Source: Selenomonadales bacterium (GTDB taxonomy: Bacteria; Bacillota; UBA994). From it: a stretch of 64,000 nt of DNA. The stretch covers positions 23,906 through 87,905 of the forward strand of contig JAGXRZ010000040.1 in assembly GCA_018335585.1 (NCBI GenBank), written 5' to 3'. The translations under genes and the position numbers were made by a program. The notes under the pieces were generated by a model, which did not search any database, was not told where the DNA came from, and worked only from the letters and a program-made list of their open reading frames with translations. This document shows, in pieces, positions 1,505 through 61,592 of the stretch (within the stretch, counting starts at the first letter, position 1; the number at the start of each line of letters is the position of its first letter).

Positions 1505-2074
1505 GTGGACTTATTTCTCGTGGCGCGACCCACAGGGCGTCTCCTGAGCCTTGCGGCAGAAGTGCAGGAGATGCTAAACAAGCGTTATAGGCTATATGCC
1601 GGGATTCTCCCTCCCCTTCATCTGACGTTAGCACGCATGCAGTTTGCCGATGCGGACGAGCGCAGGCTAGCCCTAGAGCGGACTGCCGAAGCCGCGCGTA
1701 AGACCGACGCTTTCTACGTGCAGGCTAATGGGTATCTTCGCTTTGGCCCGCCGCATCTGGCGATTGGCGCGGCCGTGGTAGGGGATGAGAACCTGTTTCG
1801 CCTGCGCGCGGACTTAGTTACCCACTTAGCCGAGCAACTTGTCGTGCAGCCTAACGACTATTGGAAGCCGCACATCACTCTGGTCTCCGCGACGCACGGG
1901 CGGGCCTGGAGTGAGCAGGAGTGGAAGGCTGCTTATACATCGGTGCTAGATTATGCTTTACAGGCCGAATGTCTCGTCGAAGAGCTAGAGTTATGGTATC
2001 CGCAGTACGACCCTAGCGTACGCTTGTTGGCTAAGTTTAGAATGGGACTTGGGCTAGTGGAGCTCTTAGACTAG
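1505..2074 (+). CDS. 2H phosphoesterase (LigT/ThpR-like RNA 2',3'-cyclic phosphodiesterase)
   Basis: Two H-x-T-x motifs (PLHLTLA and PHITLVS) typical of the 2H superfamily; AGGAGG RBS 7 nt before GTG 1505 (ORF frame opens at 1499). Confidence 0.65.
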   Translation: MDLFLVARPTGRLLSLAAEVQEMLNKRYRLYAGILPPLHLTLARMQFADADERRLALERTAEAARKTDAFYVQANGYLRFGPPHLAIGAAVVGDENLFRLRADLVTHLAEQLVVQPNDYWKPHITLVSATHGRAWSEQEWKAAYTSVLDYALQAECLVEELELWYPQYDPSVRLLAKFRMGLGLVELLD

Positions 2075-2098
2075 AAGGATAGGCAGTTATGGGAGGTA

Positions 2099-2872
2099 GT
2101 GTGGGACATGCTGTTTGCGATTGATGTTGGGAACACAAATATCGTCCTGGGGTTAGCAGATAACGGCAAATGGCTAGACACCTGGCGTATTTCCACGGAC
2201 ATTAAACGCACGGTGGACGAGTACTTTACAATTGTCTCAGCCTTGCTCGCGGCCGCGTCCTATCACCCCGCCGCAGTAAGCGGGGTTATAATCACTAATG
2301 TCGTGCCGCCTATCCAGGGCACGCTCGAACAGGTGGTACATAAGCTCTTTAAGCGCACGCCGTTAGTCGTAGGCGAAGGTGCCCGCACAGGGATTAAAAT
2401 CCGCACCGACAACCCGCGGGAGGTAGGTGCGGACAGGATTGTTAACTCGGTGGCTGCGTATCACCTCTACGGCGGCCCGGCGATTGTGGTAGATTTCGGT
2501 ACGGCGACGACTTTCGATGTCGTCTCTGCGCAAGGGGAATACTTAGGTGGAGCCATTGCGCCCGGCATCGGCATCTCCGCTGAGGCGCTCTTTTTGCGCG
2601 CTTCTAAGCTTAGCCGCGTCGAGCTCGAGCGTCCTAAGCGCGCCATCGGCAAAAACACGGTGGAAAGCATGCAGTCTGGTCTTGTCTTTGGCTATGCCGG
2701 GCTGGTAGAAGGCATGATCGCGCGGCTACAACGCGAATTAGGCCACAAGGCGCAAGTTATCGCGACCGGCGGTCTGGCACGGGTGGTGGCAGCAGAAACG
2801 CAGTGCATTGACCGCATTGACGACTTGCTGACACTAGAGGGGTTGAGGATAATTTGGGGGATGAATGCGTAG
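2099..2872 (+). CDS. coaX: Type III pantothenate kinase CoaX
   Basis: N-terminal AIDVGNTN motif and overall ASKHA-fold CoaX pattern; first gene of a CoA biosynthesis cluster. Confidence 0.85.
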   Translation: MWDMLFAIDVGNTNIVLGLADNGKWLDTWRISTDIKRTVDEYFTIVSALLAAASYHPAAVSGVIITNVVPPIQGTLEQVVHKLFKRTPLVVGEGARTGIKIRTDNPREVGADRIVNSVAAYHLYGGPAIVVDFGTATTFDVVSAQGEYLGGAIAPGIGISAEALFLRASKLSRVELERPKRAIGKNTVESMQSGLVFGYAGLVEGMIARLQRELGHKAQVIATGGLARVVAAETQCIDRIDDLLTLEGLRIIWGMNA

Positions 2873-2879
2873 TAGGGGT

Positions 2880-2992
2880 GCAGTTTGCACTTCGCACTTT
2901 GCACTTTGCACTTCGTAGTGTAATGCTCCAACTGCGAGCAGAGAACGCTACTTTCTCCACTAAGTGCTAAGTGCCAAGTGCCTAGTGCTACC
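2880..2992. repeat. Heptamer tandem-repeat locus A: [GCACTTN]x5, 43-bp spacer, inverted [NAAGTGC]x4
   Basis: gcagttt gcacttc gcacttt gcacttt gcacttc, then ctaagtg ctaagtg ccaagtg cctagtg in opposite orientation; lies between coaX stop and coaBC RBS. Confidence 0.8.
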
Positions 2993-3012
2993 ACGAGACA
3001 AGGAGGCCTCCC

Positions 3013-4191
3013 ATGAGCAAACAACACATCGTCCTCGGCGTAACCGGCAGTATTGCCGTGTATAAGGCAGCTGACTTAACCAGCCGCCTCGTTAAGGCTG
3101 GCTACATTGTCGACGTGATAATGACCAAGGCGGCGCAGGAGTTTGTGCAGCCGCTTACGTTTCAGGCGCTGACGCACCGCCCTGTAGTTACCGAAATGTT
3201 TACGCTGCACAACGAAATGTCGGTTGAGCATATTGCCTTGGCGGAGCGGGCGAATGTGCTCCTCATTGCCCCCGCGACGGCAAACATTATTGCCAAGCTT
3301 AGGCACGGCCTAGCGGACGATATGCTAAGCTGCACGGCGCTGGCCACACGGGCGCCGCTTGTTATCGCTCCCGCCATGAATAACGGCATGTACGAGAATC
3401 CGGTAACGCAAGAGAACATCGCGGTGCTAAAGGCGCGCGGCGTTACTTTTGTCGGCCCGGGCGAAGGGTATCTCGCCTGCGGCACCGTCGGGCGCGGGCG
3501 CCTTACGGAGATTTTGGATATCTTTGATACCGTAAAGATGGTGCTTGGGCGAAGCGGGGACTTAGCGGGACGAAAAGTCGTGATTACAGCGGGAGGTACA
3601 GAAGAACCGATTGATCCTGTGCGCTGTATTACTAACCGCTCCTCCGGCAAAATGGGCTATGCCTTAGCCGAGGCGGCGCGCGACCGCGGCGCGTCTGTGA
3701 CGCTAATCGCAGGCCCCACCAGCCTCCGCGCTCCCTACGGCGTCAACTGCGTTCCCGTACGCACCGCCCTGGAGATGCTTGCGGCAGTGCAGGCAGCCAC
3801 ACGCGACTGCGACGCCTTGGTGATGGCCGCCGCCGTCGCCGATTACCGCGTGGCCGAGGTGGCCGAACAAAAGATAAAGAAAGCCGCCAAAACTCTCAGC
3901 CTAGAGCTAGTAAAGAACCCGGACATTCTCGCTAGTCTTACCGGCGACTTTGCTAAAATAGGCTTTGCCGCCGAAAGCCAAGACCTCTTGGCTAACGCCG
4001 CGGCCAAACTAGAAGCCAAAGGACTGCACATGATTGTAGCTAACGACATCACACGCGCGGGTAGCGGCTTTGGCACAGAAACCAACGAAGCCACCCTGCT
4101 CTACCGGGGCGGCCGCCGCGAAGCTTTGCCGCTGATGACAAAAGAACGCCTAGCGCATATAATACTGGATAGACTAACCGACCTATACTAG
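3013..4191 (+). CDS. coaBC: Bifunctional phosphopantothenoylcysteine decarboxylase / phosphopantothenate-cysteine ligase CoaBC
   Basis: N-terminal flavoprotein domain (GVTGSIAVYK...) plus C-terminal CoaB ligase domain; 392 aa; GGAGG RBS. Confidence 0.9.
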   Translation: MSKQHIVLGVTGSIAVYKAADLTSRLVKAGYIVDVIMTKAAQEFVQPLTFQALTHRPVVTEMFTLHNEMSVEHIALAERANVLLIAPATANIIAKLRHGLADDMLSCTALATRAPLVIAPAMNNGMYENPVTQENIAVLKARGVTFVGPGEGYLACGTVGRGRLTEILDIFDTVKMVLGRSGDLAGRKVVITAGGTEEPIDPVRCITNRSSGKMGYALAEAARDRGASVTLIAGPTSLRAPYGVNCVPVRTALEMLAAVQAATRDCDALVMAAAVADYRVAEVAEQKIKKAAKTLSLELVKNPDILASLTGDFAKIGFAAESQDLLANAAAKLEAKGLHMIVANDITRAGSGFGTETNEATLLYRGGRREALPLMTKERLAHIILDRLTDLY

Positions 4192-9514: not shown

Positions 9515-10839
9515 ATCCTGCAGTGCTTACGGCGGTGATGTTCGTCCTCCTCTTGGCTGGCATCGGCTCCGGCATGCCGGTAGCTTCAGTCTTAGCGGGT
9601 TTGGGTTTGTTCACTGGATTGGCCACCTGGGGTATGCGCTCCATGCCGATTATGGTTTCGGCCATCTTTGGCACGATGACCAGCGACGTGCTTATTGCCT
9701 TGCCGCTCTTTGTGTTTATGGGCTGTATGATGGAGGCCTCCGGTGTAGCGGACCGGCTCTTTATGAATCTGCGCGTGTTGTTAGGCTCTATGCGCGGCGG
9801 CTTAGGTATTGTGGCTATCTTGTTGGCTACAGTCTTGGCCGCAACCACTGGCATTATCGGGGCCTCGATAGTGATGATGGCGGCACTCGCACTGCCAAGC
9901 ATGCTAAAGGCCGAGTACGATAAGCCTTTGGCCGCGGGCATCATTTGCGCAGGCGGCAGTCTAGGCATCCTTATCCCGCCAAGTAACATGCTGATCATCT
10001 ATGCTCTGTCGGCAGGCGTTTCGGTCGTGTCGCTGTTTGCTGCGGCTGTTATTCCCGGCTTGTTGCTCGCTGCCTTGTATGTAGCTTATGTGGCTATTCG
10101 CTGTCACCTGCGGCCGGAGCTAGGTCCGCCGCTGCCGCCAGAAGAAAGAGGGAAAATCCGATTGATGCCTTTTCTGGGCGATTTGCTCACCTCCCTAGTG
10201 CCGCCCGTGCTGCTTATTGTCGCAGTGCTTGGCACTATCTTTCTAGGGATTGCCGCGCCGGTCGAAGCATCGGCGGCAGGCGCGTTTGGCGCGACGCTGC
10301 TAGCGGCCATGAACAAGCGGGTCAGCTTGGACGTGTTGAAAAAGGCTGCCCAGCATACCCTGCAGATCTCAAGCACCATTTTGTGGTTAGTGGTAGGCGC
10401 GAGTATGTTTACCTCGATCTTCCTCGTGCTCGGGGGAGGGCGGGTAGTGCACGATGCGATGATGAGTGTAGCTGGGGGCAATGCCTGGGTCGTTCTCGCC
10501 ATAATGATGGTCCTCCTCTTTGTCCTAGGTAAACTCATCTGTTGGGTAGGTATTCTGCTCATTACCGTCCCCATCTTCACCCCGATAGCGACCAGCCTCG
10601 GATTTAACCCGATTTGGTTTGCCTTGCTCGTGTGCGTTAACCTGCAGATGTCGCTCTTGACACCGCCTTTTGCTTACTCCATCTTCTACCTCAAGCAGGC
10701 GGCACCACCCGAAGTCACGCTGTTTCATATGTACAAGGGCGTGTGGCCGTTTATTGCGCTGCAGGCGGTGGGCTTACTACTCATCATCATTTTCCCAGAC
10801 TTGGTGCTCTGGCTTCCTAGCTTGCTCTATCAACGCTGA
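9511..10839 (+). CDS. dctM: TRAP transporter large permease (DctM family)
   Basis: 442 aa polytopic membrane protein with DctM-like pattern; start overlaps dctQ stop (translational coupling). Confidence 0.85.
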   Translation: MNPAVLTAVMFVLLLAGIGSGMPVASVLAGLGLFTGLATWGMRSMPIMVSAIFGTMTSDVLIALPLFVFMGCMMEASGVADRLFMNLRVLLGSMRGGLGIVAILLATVLAATTGIIGASIVMMAALALPSMLKAEYDKPLAAGIICAGGSLGILIPPSNMLIIYALSAGVSVVSLFAAAVIPGLLLAALYVAYVAIRCHLRPELGPPLPPEERGKIRLMPFLGDLLTSLVPPVLLIVAVLGTIFLGIAAPVEASAAGAFGATLLAAMNKRVSLDVLKKAAQHTLQISSTILWLVVGASMFTSIFLVLGGGRVVHDAMMSVAGGNAWVVLAIMMVLLFVLGKLICWVGILLITVPIFTPIATSLGFNPIWFALLVCVNLQMSLLTPPFAYSIFYLKQAAPPEVTLFHMYKGVWPFIALQAVGLLLIIIFPDLVLWLPSLLYQR

Positions 10840-12066: not shown

Positions 12067-12119
12067 GGGCTCTCCGTTTTCCGCCTTCCTCTTTCCTCCT
12101 CCGCTCGGGGCCGTAAGCT

Positions 12120-12182
12120 GTGAGTTGTGAGTTGTGAGTTATGAGTTGCGAGTTGTGAGTTGTGAGTTGTGAGTTGTGAGCC
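12120..12182. repeat. Heptamer tandem-repeat locus B: [GTGAGTT]x9
   Basis: gtgagtt x3, atgagtt, gcgagtt, gtgagtt x3, gtgagcc; preceded by a CT-rich tract; immediately upstream of the fur-family promoter. Confidence 0.9.
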
Positions 12183-12191
12183 GTAACCTGT

Positions 12192-12243
12192 CCTTGACAT
12201 GTGTGCTTCTACATGACATAATCTTGACTGAACAGTAACTGTT
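12192..12243 (+). promoter_or_regulatory. Sigma-A-type promoter (TTGACA-17-CATAAT) with 6-1-6 palindrome AACAGTaACTGTT at the transcription start
   Basis: ttgacatgtgtgcttctacatgacataat followed by aacagtaactgtt; its position fits an autoregulatory Fur-family operator. Confidence 0.5.
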
Positions 12244-14957: not shown

Positions 14958-14986
14958 TTGACACGGGTAGGGCGCAATGCTATAGT
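14958..14986 (+). promoter_or_regulatory. Consensus-like sigma-A promoter TTGACA-17-TATAGT
   Basis: ttgaca cgggtagggcgcaatgc tatagt; drives a short leader that ends at an intrinsic terminator. Confidence 0.6.
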
Positions 14987-14992
14987 CGAGGC

Positions 14993-15146
14993 GAAAAGAA
15001 TAGTGGTCACGAGCTAAAGTGTGTCTAGGGTTCCGTAGCCTAAAGCTAGCCTGGACCGAGCGACACTAGCGCGTTGCGCTACACCGAAGGGATAAAAGCC
15101 CGGGCGGGGATGTTTTCTCGTAAACATCCCCGCCCGTTTTCTTTTT
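14993..15146 (+). ncRNA. Candidate structured leader / cis-regulatory RNA (~150 nt) upstream of the pur operon; class unassigned
   Basis: Bounded by the promoter above and a strong terminator (gggcggggatgttt...aaacatccccgccc + GTTTTCTTTTT at 15102-15146). Internal helices GUGUC..GACAC and UAGCGC-GUU-GCGCUA. Loop CUCGU is complementary to upstream ACGAG, suggesting a terminator/antiterminator switch. Confidence 0.35.
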
Positions 15147-15147
15147 C

Positions 15148-15528
15148 GCCAGCCGCCAGCCGCCAGCCGCCAGCCGCCAGCCGCCAGCCGCCAGCCGCCA
15201 GCCGCCAGCCGCCAGCCGCTGGCCGGCAGCGGAGCAGTGACGGGGTGGAAAGGTGGAAAGGTGGAAAAGTTAAAGGGGTAAGGGCTGTGAGCTGTGAGCT
15301 GTGAGGATAGGCTTTAGGCGTTAGGCGCTAGGGGAACGGGCTGTGAGCTTAAGCATTGAGCTGTGCACGAAGAGGAAGCGGATACCGCGGCGACGCGCTC
15401 TACTGGGCACTGAGCACTGGGCACTTCCCTACCAGGAGTCAGGAGCCAGCAGCTAGGAGCCCCTCGTCCTTCACGGAGCACGAAGCACGCTCCCTACTAG
15501 GATCCAGTAGCCAGTAGCCAGCCGCCCT
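15148..15528. repeat. Heptamer tandem-repeat locus C (~380 bp mosaic array)
   Basis: Blocks [GCCAGCC]x10, [GGTGGAAA]x3, [GTGAGCT]x3, [TAGGCNN]x3, [CTGGGCA/CTGAGCA]x3, [CAGGAGN]x4, [AGCACGN]x3, [CCAGTAG]x2; fills the whole interval between the leader terminator and the purB RBS. Confidence 0.9.
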
Positions 15529-22184: not shown

Positions 22185-23223
22185 GGAAGTAGGGGGCAGG
22201 GGAGCGGGTCTCACGTACCGCGACGCAGGCGTAGATGTCGCAGCCGGTCATCAAGCGGTTGACCTTATGCGGGCGCACGTGCGCTCTACCTTTCGCCGCG
22301 AGGTGCTGGGGGATATCGGCGGTTTCGGCGGGCTGTTTGCCTTAGGCAAGTACGAGGAGCCGGTCTTAGTGTCCGGCACGGACGGCGTCGGCAGCAAGCT
22401 TAAGGTAGCCTTTATGCTTGGGCGTCACAACACAGTCGGCATCGACCTCGTAGCCATGTCGGCCAACGACATCTTGGTCTCAGGTGCAGAGCCGCTGTTT
22501 TTCCTCGACTACATCGGCATTGCCCGCTTAGACCCCATTTTGGTGGCCGAGATTGTGGCCGGCGTTGCCGCAGGCTGCCAAGCCGCGGGGTGCGCGCTTA
22601 TAGGCGGCGAAACAGCCGAACTGCCAGACCTCTACAGCGCGGGCGAGTACGACCTAGCCGGGTTTGCCGTAGGTGTAGCGGAGAAAAAGCGTCTTATCGA
22701 CGGTAAAACAATTAGCTGTGGCGATATGCTGCTTGGGCTTGCGTCTAGCGGACTGCATAGCAACGGCTATTCGCTGGCGCGCAAACTAGTATTCGAAGTC
22801 GGCGGGTTTACCTGTGCCGATGTGCCGCCGGCACTAGGCGTAGCAGTCGGGGAAGAACTGCTCCGTCCGACGCGCATCTATGTGCGACCCGTACTGCCGC
22901 TAGTACGGCTAGGCTTAGTTAAAGGCATGGCCCACATTACAGGCGGCGGGTTTATCGACAATATTCCGCGCATGCTCCCCGCCGGTCTTGGCGTGGAAGT
23001 AACGCGCGGGAGCTGGCCTGTTTTGCCCGTTTTTGGCTGGCTCCAAGAACTTGGTCAGGTAGCCGAGAGCGAAATGTACCGCACGTTTAATATGGGAATT
23101 GGCTTTGTGCTCTTTGTGGCCGCAACAGACGTAGCCGCAGTACGCGAGCGGCTTGCAGGCTTTGGCGAAGAAAGCTATGTCATAGGGAAAGTAATCGCGG
23201 GTGAGGGGGTTTCGCTTGTCTGA
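22168..23223 (+). CDS. purM: AIR synthetase PurM
   Basis: 351 aa; YRDAGVDV N-terminal motif and PurM fold. Confidence 0.9.
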
Positions 23224-23224
23224 T

Positions 23225-23920
23225 GTGACACAACACTTCCCCAAGCGACAAGCGACAAGCGACAAGCGACATACGCCAAGCGACAAGCGACATCCCCCCC
23301 CCTTACGCCTTGCCGTCCTAGTCTCAGGCGGCGGAACTACTTTGCAGGGGCTAATAGACGCCATAGCGGCAGGCTCGCTCGGCGCGGAAATCGCCTTGGT
23401 CGTCAGTTCGCGGCGCGATGCTTTCGCCCTTGAGCGCGCGCGCCGCTCCGACATTCCTACCTGCGTACTTAGCAGGCGCGCTTTCACAACGCCCGAGCAA
23501 CACGATGCGGCCCTCGCCGGGCTACTGCAGCAACACCAAGTTGACCTCGTCGTCTTAGCGGGCTACTTGCTGCCCATAGGCCAAGCGACGCTAAGTGCGT
23601 TCCCGGGGCGGATTATAAACATTCATCCCAGTCTCCTGCCCGCCTTTGGCGGACGGGGATATTACGGGTCACGCGTACATACCGAAGTTCTGGAGCACGG
23701 CTGTAAGATTACCGGGGCTACCGTGCACTTTGTGGAGGCCGAGCTCGACACAGGACCCATAATTTTGCAGGGAGCCGTAGAAATAGAGGACGACGACACG
23801 AGCGAGTCGCTCGCAGCTAAGGTAGGAGAACTCGAGCGCGAGCTGTACCCAAGAGCCATTCAACTTTTTGCCGACGGCAAGCTCCGGCAAGTCGGGCGCA
23901 GGGTAACGATTCTAAAGTGA
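23225..23920 (+). CDS. purN: GAR formyltransferase PurN, with repeat-encoded N-terminal extension
   Basis: Conserved PurN core starts at LRLAVLVSGGG (~23303) and contains the HPSLLP motif. The only in-frame starts (GTG 23201, TTG 23216, GTG 23225) lie upstream of the heptamer array. ~26 extra residues (TQHFPKRQATSDKRHTPSDKRHPPP) are therefore translated from the CAAGCGA repeats and a C9 tract. Confidence 0.8.
   Translation: MTQHFPKRQATSDKRHTPSDKRHPPPLRLAVLVSGGGTTLQGLIDAIAAGSLGAEIALVVSSRRDAFALERARRSDIPTCVLSRRAFTTPEQHDAALAGLLQQHQVDLVVLAGYLLPIGQATLSAFPGRIINIHPSLLPAFGGRGYYGSRVHTEVLEHGCKITGATVHFVEAELDTGPIILQGAVEIEDDDTSESLAAKVGELERELYPRAIQLFADGKLRQVGRRVTILK
23242..23302. repeat. Heptamer tandem-repeat locus D: [CAAGCGA]x4, catacgc, [CAAGCGA]x2, then cat+C9, inside the purN 5' coding region
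   Basis: Copy number taken from the ORF-track translation (KRQATSDKRHTPSDKRHPPP), which requires four plus two units followed by nine C. Confidence 0.8.
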
Positions 23921-38187: not shown

Positions 38188-42562
<4,375 letters not shown>

Positions 42563-60539: not shown

Positions 60540-60728
60540 CAGTGTTGTCTCCTCTCCTTTATTTTGCTGTCACCTATGCTGAGCTTTAGCTCTGCAAAAC
60601 TGAACTTTAAGCTCTGCATGCTTGAATTGTAAGTGATGATTCTTGATGCGAAAACAAGTAAATATTAACAACACACAGAAGAGCCTTGCCGTTGCTGGTT
60701 GTGTTATTTTTTACTAGGAGTGAAAAAT

Positions 60729-61229: not shown

Positions 61230-61530
61230 GCGCCAGCCGCCGGGAGAGATTGCACTTCGCACTTGGCACTTAGCACTTAGTGGAGGACGAGGGGTTGCTG
61301 GCTGCTGGCTCCTGGCTCCTGGTAGAGAAGGTGCCCAGTGCCCAGTGCCCAGTAGAGCGCGTCGCAGCGGTTTCGGTTTCCCTTTGACCTTTCCACCCTC
61401 CATGCTCACAACTCACAACTCACAACTCACAATTCACAACTCACAAGCGACAAGGGACAAGCGACAAGGGACAAGCGACAAGGGACAAGCGACAAGGGAC
61501 AAGCGACATGCGACAAGCGACAAGCCACCA
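61230..61530. repeat. Heptamer tandem-repeat locus E (~300 bp mosaic array)
   Basis: gccagccgcc, [GCACTTN]x4, [GCTGGCT/GCTCCTG]x4, [GTGCCCA]x3, ggtttcggtttcc, cctttccacc, [CACAACT]x5, then alternating [CAAGCGA/CAAGGGA]x11; spans from the fRMsr stop to 80 bp before nrdD. Confidence 0.9.
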
Positions 61531-61545
61531 AACAATTGCCCCTAA

Positions 61546-61592
61546 GCACAATATGTAGTATACTTGCTTACAACGATATCCCACTAATAGTG
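61546..61592. promoter_or_regulatory. Putative tandem NrdR boxes upstream of nrdD
   Basis: cacaatatgtagtata and ccactaatagtgca, near-palindromic, centres ~33 bp apart, ~25-70 bp upstream of the nrdD start. Confidence 0.45.

Follow-up and report, generated by a model that had tools for sequence, protein, structure and literature searches.

The coaX-coaBC spacer and its hairpin

In the 64-kb window, by which we mean the whole stretch of DNA analyzed here, the gene coaX for a type III pantothenate kinase (an ORF at 2099-2872 on the + strand, with an NCBIfam match at E 2.6e-97) ends in a TAG stop codon at 2870-2872 and is followed on the same strand by the gene for the bifunctional CoaBC (3013-4191, ATG at 3013-3015). 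The spacer between them holds two arrays of tandem heptamers in inverted orientation. The left array (2880-2914, + strand) has five units, GCAGTTT, GCACTTC, GCACTTT, GCACTTT and GCACTTC, and the right array (2961-2988, + strand) has four, TAAGTGC, TAAGTGC, CAAGTGC and CTAGTGC, the reverse complement of GCACTTN; one mismatch each occurs in left unit 1 and right unit 4. Between the arrays lies a 46-nt loop spacer (2915-2960, + strand) with an inner 7-bp helix (2915-2921 with 2945-2951) and a small apical stem, ending in CTCCAC (2955-2960; reverse complement GTGGAG), a junction motif that adjoins GCACTTN arrays elsewhere too. Read from the stop codon, the order is TAGGGGT, five left units, 46 nt, four right units and TACCACGAGAC-AAGGAGG-CCTCCC-ATG, where AAGGAGG is the coaBC Shine-Dalgarno sequence (SD; 3000-3006, + strand), outside the hairpin and 11 nt past its end. 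A sequence-only reading of this DNA had described five GCACTTN and four NAAGTGC units between the coaX stop and the coaBC ribosome-binding site, and both the units and their location (2880-2988) agree with ours, but the separation it gave, 43 bp, is short of the actual 46 nt and its array edges, 2880-2915 and 2959-2992, are slightly off.

Both arrays were called by Tandem Repeats Finder at period 7, and an inverted-repeat search returned arms at 2887-2923 and 2952-2988, 37 nt long and 78% complementary (the arrays 78-85%); since the arms are themselves repeats, several pairing registers offset by 7 nt are possible. Taking a heptanucleotide array to be at least three head-to-tail 7-nt units, the spacer holds two, of five and four units, and with one unit on opposite strands at a distance of 46 nt they form a convergent inverted pair. 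At no more than one mismatch, the window has 13 occurrences of GCACTTNGCACTT where 0.49 are expected; none of 100 shuffles came to 13. The element has the same sequence in independent JGI, ENA and Logan assemblies and is thus no assembly artifact.

Folded as RNA, 2880-2992 reaches -46.5 kcal/mol (z -5.37; 200 dinucleotide shuffles were all less stable), forming a hairpin of about 100 nt between the two genes. Left units 2-5 pair with the right array in blocks of 5+6+6+6 = 23 bp that are split by 1x1 pyrimidine-pyrimidine mismatches at the degenerate position, and the 7-bp inner helix follows; the stem of about 30 bp with mismatches at that position, as anticipated from the letters alone, is what the fold gives. 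The interval 2870-3015, for which a comparison with shuffled controls had been named beforehand, also folds better than these (-52.6 kcal/mol, z -2.74), and the hairpin persists at 65-75 °C in the folding model. The minus strand of 2880-2992 folds equally well (-47.9 kcal/mol, z -4.10), so that folding provides no argument favoring RNA over DNA.

In a partition function over 2840-3060, the SD is predicted to be unpaired with a probability of 0.69 when the element is present, 0.74 when 2880-2992 is deleted and 0.35 ± 0.14 when the element is shuffled. The hairpin is thereby predicted to insulate itself and to leave the coaBC SD unmasked, and an element that folds on itself with the SD left free may be why inserts directly before an SD are tolerated. 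The minimum-energy fold also contains a weak 4-bp helix, invariant in the A alleles described below, between GGGG at 2875-2878 and C-rich 3009-3012, between SD and ATG.

A scan for promoter and terminator consensus sequences found none in 2000-3300 and none between groEL and coaBC, which makes co-transcription of coaX and coaBC plausible; judging from these absent signals, the element is probably co-transcribed with both genes. An intrinsic terminator was considered and rejected, there being no terminator-like site in 2000-3300; ACCACGAGAC comes after the stem. Rfam searches returned no relevant match, either for the whole window at the gathering score or for 2750-3150 at the E-value threshold, and the sub-threshold matches of the element were generic miRNA-precursor hairpins only. 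Of the properties by which a cis-regulatory leader may be recognized, neither an SD or start codon paired in the fold (the SD being about as free with the element as without it) nor a curated RNA family was found here.

Heptamer arrays across the window and in other genomes

A period scan of the 64-kb window found 15 arrays at period 7 against 0-1 at each other period from 4 to 12. All of them sit between long ORFs, bar one possible in-frame case. Period 7 alone is over-represented in this genome, and at least 12 different canonical heptamer units occur within 64 kb. Besides the coaX-coaBC spacer, arrays occupy 12119-12180, 15147-15521, 23242-23292, 40387-40564 and 61252-61525; two further array-filled spacers lie in the 7 kb upstream of the window (locus L081), and an extra 10 kb downstream of the window contained none. 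The adjoining genes are unrelated to one another (coaBC, fur, purB, a purN-like gene, ligA, nrdD, tsaD and thiL). Arrays of GCACTTN itself recur at 61252-61280 and three times in L081, making at least six in all.

The closest sister of the coaX-coaBC element lies at 61252-61384 (+ strand), upstream of an nrdD promoter-like site, with the layout [GCACTTN]x4 - GTGGAGGACGAGGGG - [CTGGCTC]n - TAGAGAA - [GTGCCCA]x3, its first and last arrays being 5/7 complementary. Next to it, [CTCACAA]x6 and [ACAAGCG/ACAAGGG]x12 (61405-61525, + strand) precede the promoter-like site at 61536-61564. An inverted copy of the 61280-61384 mosaic core is found at 15370-15474 (- strand) with 88-91% identity, within a field of at least seven heptamer or octamer arrays that extends from a riboswitch terminator to purB (15147-15521) and contains CGCCAGC x12, GGTGGAAA x3, GCTGTGA x3, TAGGCGT, ACTGGGC, CCAGGAG and CCAGTAG. 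The member at 40387-40564 (+ strand) fills the spacer upstream of ligA and abuts the SD, as [CGTGCNN]x7 - GTGGAGGACGGGGGG - [CTAGCTC]n - TAGAGA - [TTCACGA]x4 - [GCTCAAC]x3; its segment 40437-40485 has part of the 61280-61384 core in common. [TGTGAGT]x9 at 12119-12180 (- strand), reverse-complementary to the CTCACAA array at 61405, stands upstream of a fur promoter-like site (12194-12222), and [CAAGCGA]x7 at 23242-23292 (+ strand), with the unit of the 61443 array, marks the junction before the purN-like gene.

Self-comparison resolves these spacers into mosaics of common modules of 40-120 bp, 88-100% identical and in both orientations. The coaX-coaBC element belongs among them: 2955-2988 matches 61252-61285, read as its reverse complement, at 94% identity, and aligned on the minus strand the coaX-coaBC and 61-kb elements follow one plan, [GCACTNN]4 - GTGGAG... 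- spacer - [GTGCNNN]n. Sister elements also pair array-to-array in their minimum-energy folds, with only 4-5 of 7 positions complementary, and are no more stable than shuffles (z -0.36 for 61245-61360, -0.27 for 15395-15505 and -1.85 for a third). Relative to the downstream gene, members of the family point either way, and in both cases with a recognizable promoter-like site (12194-12222 and 61536-61564) the arrays lie upstream of that site, not in the leader.

Three further features of the window were noted in passing. At the purN-like gene (23201-23310), CAAGCGA x7 and a run of about 10 C stand in frame inside the longest ORF, and no ATG, GTG or TTG separates the array from the conserved LAVLVSGGG motif, which leaves two options, an array translated as an N-terminal extension or a gene with an unusual start codon. 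On the + strand of 14958-15145, a promoter-like TTGACA-17-TATAGT is followed by a Guanidine-I riboswitch aptamer (RF00442 at 15014-15108; E 5.7e-11, 62 bits where the gathering score is 63) and, at 15101-15145, by a strong intrinsic terminator, after which come 400 nt of heptamer arrays and a purB-like gene; with no ORF 3' of the terminator, the riboswitch appears to be an orphan. The gene at 60699 is preceded by a spacer with a 21-nt tandem repeat of 2.2 copies (60576-60622).

When metagenomes were scanned for three GCACTTN units, at least 119 contigs (L087-L205) proved to have arrays of 3-14 units, and in 14 among the 119 listed a reverse-complement partner array of the same core lies within 250 bp. 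The mosaic core GTGGAGGACGAGGGG was absent from these 119 listed loci, which indicates that the mosaic is lineage-specific while the GCACTTN unit is widespread; apart from the GCACTTN family, none of the other window units recurred among the fetched loci. Across all fetched loci, which come from many organisms, 218 period-7 arrays had complete flanks, and 78 of these (36%) have an inverted partner (at least 12 of 14 matches) within 250 bp, against 2 (1%) with shuffled flanks. Their gene context shows no preference (91 tandem, 29 divergent, 24 convergent and 64 'in ORF'), as assigned by crude longest-ORF calls that make the 'in ORF' class unreliable. Among individual loci, metagenome contigs L170 and L180 have GCACTTN arrays in long nested imperfect palindromes. 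Clean inverted heptamer pairs are found in a Peptococcaceae genome (L054: 6133-6310, 7575-7726 and 16985-17118) and in an Acidobacteria metagenome-assembled genome (L067: 1767-1864 and 2750-2814), with the units GGGATTN/TAATCCC, CAGGAGA/TCTCCTG, CAGTTCG/CGAACTG and GTTTCCA/TGGAAAC; the GGGATT-type unit resembles those of Xanthomonas and Nostoc.

The same spacer in related genomes

A protein search returned CoaBC relatives at 99, 97, 89, 87, 86, 83 and 72% identity, the 87% relative being labeled 'Firmicutes bacterium' at NCBI, and the relatives' contigs retain groESL-ligT-coaX-coaBC-pan synteny. Unless marked otherwise, flank identities in the following are nucleotide identities of coaX/coaBC to the window. 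The element is as in the window in L217 and L222 (98-99%, L217 compared), has its five left units homogenized to GCACTTC/T in L218 (98.6-99.5%), has about 4.5 left and 4 right units in L210 (93-97%; left arm GCACTTA, GCAC, GCACTTC, GCACTTT, GCACTTC; loop diverged) and has 2 left and 3 right units in L211 (80-82%). In L216, L223 and L224 (97.7% for L223) its place is taken by an unrelated 199-nt element, with CTCCTAG x3 on the left and CCAGGAG/CTAGGAG x4 on the right, and the replacement spans the stop codon to the SD entirely. At about 79%, L213 has GCTTTCC x4 facing GGAAAGC x2, and L214 has TTCAGGC x4 in a contig that stops within the array. Two relatives are without an element: L212 (about 77%) has a 34-nt spacer and L215 (72% CoaBC protein identity) one of 7 nt.

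Unit numbers are therefore polymorphic, at 5/4, 5/4 with other unit sequences, about 4.5/4 and 2/3 in this spacer and 4 vs 3 elsewhere, and a strain about 97% identical differs from the window's genome by one TAAGTGC unit. The alleles A1-A4, B and C all fold with arrays closing the element (z -3.8, -4.7, -3.1, -1.5, -4.1 and -1.6, respectively), and the distance from hairpin base to SD is 11-18 nt in each of the three alleles unrelated to one another, A, B and C. Among the four A-type alleles, array pairs are either invariant or lost by whole-unit indels, which leaves covariation uninformative. Aligned to L211, the A-type spacer is 78% identical where the flanks are 80-82%, a weak hint of more identity than free drift would leave, or else a trivial alignment of repeats. 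In terms of sequence and length the coaX-coaBC spacer is not conserved, and what recurs is the architecture; the conservation upstream of orthologs expected of a leader RNA was not found, the spacer being replaced or without the element in syntenic relatives.

The closest strains have 7-16 arrays per 10 kb and the 72-87% relatives about 0-1, and the clade loci show period-7 predominance too. No second copies of the allele A, B or C loops were present in about 250 kb of clade sequence. Among species representatives, CoaBC identity is at best 62%, mostly to Chloroflexota metagenome-assembled genomes; the element was absent from 80 of 80 of these CoaBC loci, a scan that at such identities says nothing on conservation.

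The tsaD-upstream spacer (2.4-2.8 kb before the window start) also varies, being a 437-bp mosaic in one (L081 4159-4625) and a 115-bp array pair in another (L084 4481-4625) of two strains about 97% identical; both versions end in ACAAGCG units that abut the SD, and such units are kept upstream of tsaD in L210 and L211 as well. Contigs L085, L207-L209, L214, L219 and L221 end inside heptamer arrays, e.g., at window position 2887 or about 140 nt before nrdD. As short-read assemblies break in them, heptamer arrays are expected to be under-represented in fragmented metagenome-assembled genomes.

Origin and possible roles of the arrays

Among the long simple repeats of bacteria, heptanucleotide arrays show the strongest over-representation. 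Nostoc heptamer repeats affect recF and recO reporters. In a published summary, heptanucleotide repeats are given as the most abundant class of 5-11-nt repeats in prokaryotes, with polymerase slippage proposed as their source (Mrazek et al. 2007, summarized in PMC4679880). Xanthomonas carries 186 GGGAATC-type arrays with 70-75 convergent inverted pairs per genome (Rehm et al. 2015, PMC4692102), and these arrays are hypervariable among close relatives, mostly transcribed and preferentially of about four units (PMC4692102). The elements described here resemble them as genome-wide intergenic heptamer arrays with close opposite-strand pairs able to form a stem-loop (PMC4692102). The host, however, is an uncultured bacterium with relatives labeled 'Firmicutes bacterium', and many units are arranged in mosaics with conserved junction motifs; moreover, GCACTTN is not a G-rich GGGNATC unit and has no G-tracts, so that an explanation by G-quadruplex formation does not apply. 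Geobacter metallireducens has families of 3-5 tandem hepta- to nonanucleotide repeats paired on opposite strands (Aklujkar et al. 2009, PMC2700814), at variable distance and in many intergenic places, annotated without test as putative global-regulator sites (PMC2700814); its units (MTYCTGA, TCTCCGTS[Y] and GGACCGG) differ from GCACTTN, and strain-level allele replacement is undescribed there. Like the cyanobacterial STRR, Nostoc, Microcystis and Beggiatoaceae (TAACTGA) heptamers, the arrays are mixed, intergenic and often just upstream of start codons; unlike in Nostoc, where inverted pairs are few, at least a third of the arrays here have an inverted partner, and many units coexist here where the Beggiatoaceae genome has one dominant unit. 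The Beggiatoaceae TAACTGA repeats adjoin start codons, and binding proteins have been proposed for them (PMC4679880). For none of these kinds of heptamer array is a mechanism or function established. The coaX-coaBC feature is of this known kind and has a non-G-rich unit.

Collectively, these data identify the coaX-coaBC feature as one copy of a genome-wide, lineage-specific family of modular intergenic heptamer arrays, often in inverted pairs, and not as a dedicated regulator of coaBC. We consider it probable that slippage and recombination maintain the element as a hypermutable modular repeat, which is tolerated because it folds on itself and has at most the generic, dispensable effect of an intercistronic hairpin. 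Arrays would grow and shrink by slipped-strand mispairing, modules would spread and be reshuffled through recombination or gene conversion between dispersed copies, and whole spacer alleles could be swapped by homologous recombination via the conserved flanking genes. The inverted layout may be favored because a self-pairing insert spares neighboring signals, and once co-transcribed the element would act at most as a generic hairpin, e.g., a 3' exonuclease barrier or possible RNase III substrate. The recurrence of units and junction motifs at many loci is left unexplained by slippage alone, and so is the period of 7 nt. Four other explanations are weighed below, all of which overlap with that of a hypermutable repeat.

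The first is an intercistronic hairpin selected for its structure, in the manner of REP/BIME sequences, whose fold rather than sequence would matter and which would protect against 3'-5' exonucleases or provide an RNase III site; we regard it as unlikely, if deserving of some weight. Intercistronic REP copies can stabilize upstream mRNA, and individual copies are dispensable and strain-variable. Structural selection is consistent with a hairpin whose stability on the transcribed strand far exceeds that of shuffles and which folds at 65-75 °C in the model, with plausible co-transcription in the absence of promoter or terminator consensus between the genes, and with the array-to-array closing helices of A1-A4, B and C, invariant among the A alleles; that all three unrelated alleles are modeled as array-closed hairpins before the SD could reflect selection for structure rather than neutrality. 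Most Xanthomonas heptamer repeats are transcribed, too (PMC4692102). Yet L212 and L215 have the same operon without a hairpin, sister elements fold like shuffles (61245-61360 and 15395-15505), some of them lie upstream of promoter-like sites or in divergent or convergent spacers, the equal folding of both strands gives no pointer to RNA, and there is no covariation among pairs that are invariant or lost as whole units. The arrays share with the REP/BIME sequences and REPINs of proteobacteria (PMC3116915) an intergenic position, hairpin formation and a motif mosaic in alternating orientation. However, REP arms are imperfect palindromes of 20-40 nt and the arms here are tandem heptamers, REP/REPIN consensus arms were not found, and the copies are mosaics of different modules. 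REPINs, furthermore, are near-identical copies mobilized by a RAYT transposase; no such unit was seen here, and no RAYT (IS200/IS605-like) transposase is in the gene tables, which cover about 90 kb of the genome. A role in processing or stability, which the sequence-only reading had also raised, is conceivable only in a generic form, as for any stable hairpin between cistrons.

A MITE- or foldback-like non-autonomous mobile element, with heptamer-array arms and copied by a putative transposase or recombinase, seems to us rather improbable. Eukaryotic foldback transposons have inverted arms of short tandem subrepeats whose length varies between copies. Arm length varies here likewise, dispersed copies have a core of about 106 bp in common at 88-91% identity in both orientations, a tandem double copy stands upstream of tsaD (L081 4185-4308), and closely related strains show presence/absence and whole-element replacement. 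Foldback transposons are nevertheless eukaryotic and much larger, and nothing here points to transposition: neither a target-site duplication nor a defined terminal sequence was observed (no duplication is visible between 2873-2880 and 2989-2999, where the element-free relatives are too diverged to define an empty site), no transposase is in the gene tables of the window genome or the relatives' loci, and the allele A, B and C loops are without a second copy in the clade sequence. The copies are mosaics and not of unit length, and the replaced segment runs exactly from stop codon to SD, as allele exchange by homologous recombination predicts and insertion does not.

A broader and equally doubtful proposal is that inverted heptamer-array elements are distinct, widespread bacterial 'foldback' cassettes, actively made and exchanged by a dedicated mechanism and tolerated or used as self-folding insulators; this mechanism may rest on a specific binding protein or on an enzyme working in 7-nt steps. 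It would explain the unrelated inverted pairs in one stop-to-SD spacer among strains 97.7% identical in the flanks, the same architecture in Bacillota-like, Peptococcaceae, Acidobacteria, Xanthomonas and Geobacter genomes, and the sharp preference for period 7.

A sequence-specific protein could also use the arrays as multivalent sites, each heptamer taking one monomer and inverted pairs serving as two platforms, an idea to which we assign a low probability; the candidate binders, each as conjectural, would be a global regulator, a nucleoid protein or a cold-shock or S1-type single-strand binder. In its favor, units recur across loci (at least six arrays of GCACTTN, several of ACAAGCG and CTCACAA), array length is typically 2-5 units, with 4 preferred in Xanthomonas (PMC4692102), the arrays often abut the SD, like the Beggiatoaceae TAACTGA repeats with their proposed binders (PMC4679880), and paired sites in G. 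metallireducens carry a global-regulator annotation (PMC2700814). At least 12 canonical units in 64 kb, the replacement of one unit by unrelated ones at a single spacer, an orientation relative to genes that is not fixed and the lack of any candidate protein argue against it.

The proposal from the sequence-only reading that the hairpin is a coaBC-specific riboregulator hiding or exposing the ribosome-binding site is very hard to credit, since for all the closeness of the hairpin end to the SD (11 nt) and the weak helix of 2875-2878 with 3009-3012 in the A alleles, the SD is as unpaired with the element as without it, the element is absent or replaced in relatives, the same family adjoins unrelated genes and Rfam returned no match.

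For annotation, the lesson is that a statistically convincing hairpin beside a ribosome-binding site can be a generic repeat, and that such hairpins should be compared with the remaining spacers of their genome and with the corresponding spacer in close relatives. The clade offers an unusually clean natural experiment, in which one 140-nt operon spacer holds at least four unrelated array elements or none between conserved flanks; with such varied alleles between conserved genes, slippage, recombination and effects on expression are measurable through population metagenomes and reporters. The most interesting residue is that unrelated inverted heptamer pairs coexist at one spacer within a species-level population.

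At a more distant coaX-coaBC locus, that of a Chloroflexia metagenome-assembled genome (L052; CoaBC 54%), an independent TGCGTAC/TGCGTAT array with a 14-nt super-unit (9534-9660), without an inverted partner, directly follows the coaX stop and is itself followed by a small ORF and then coaBC.
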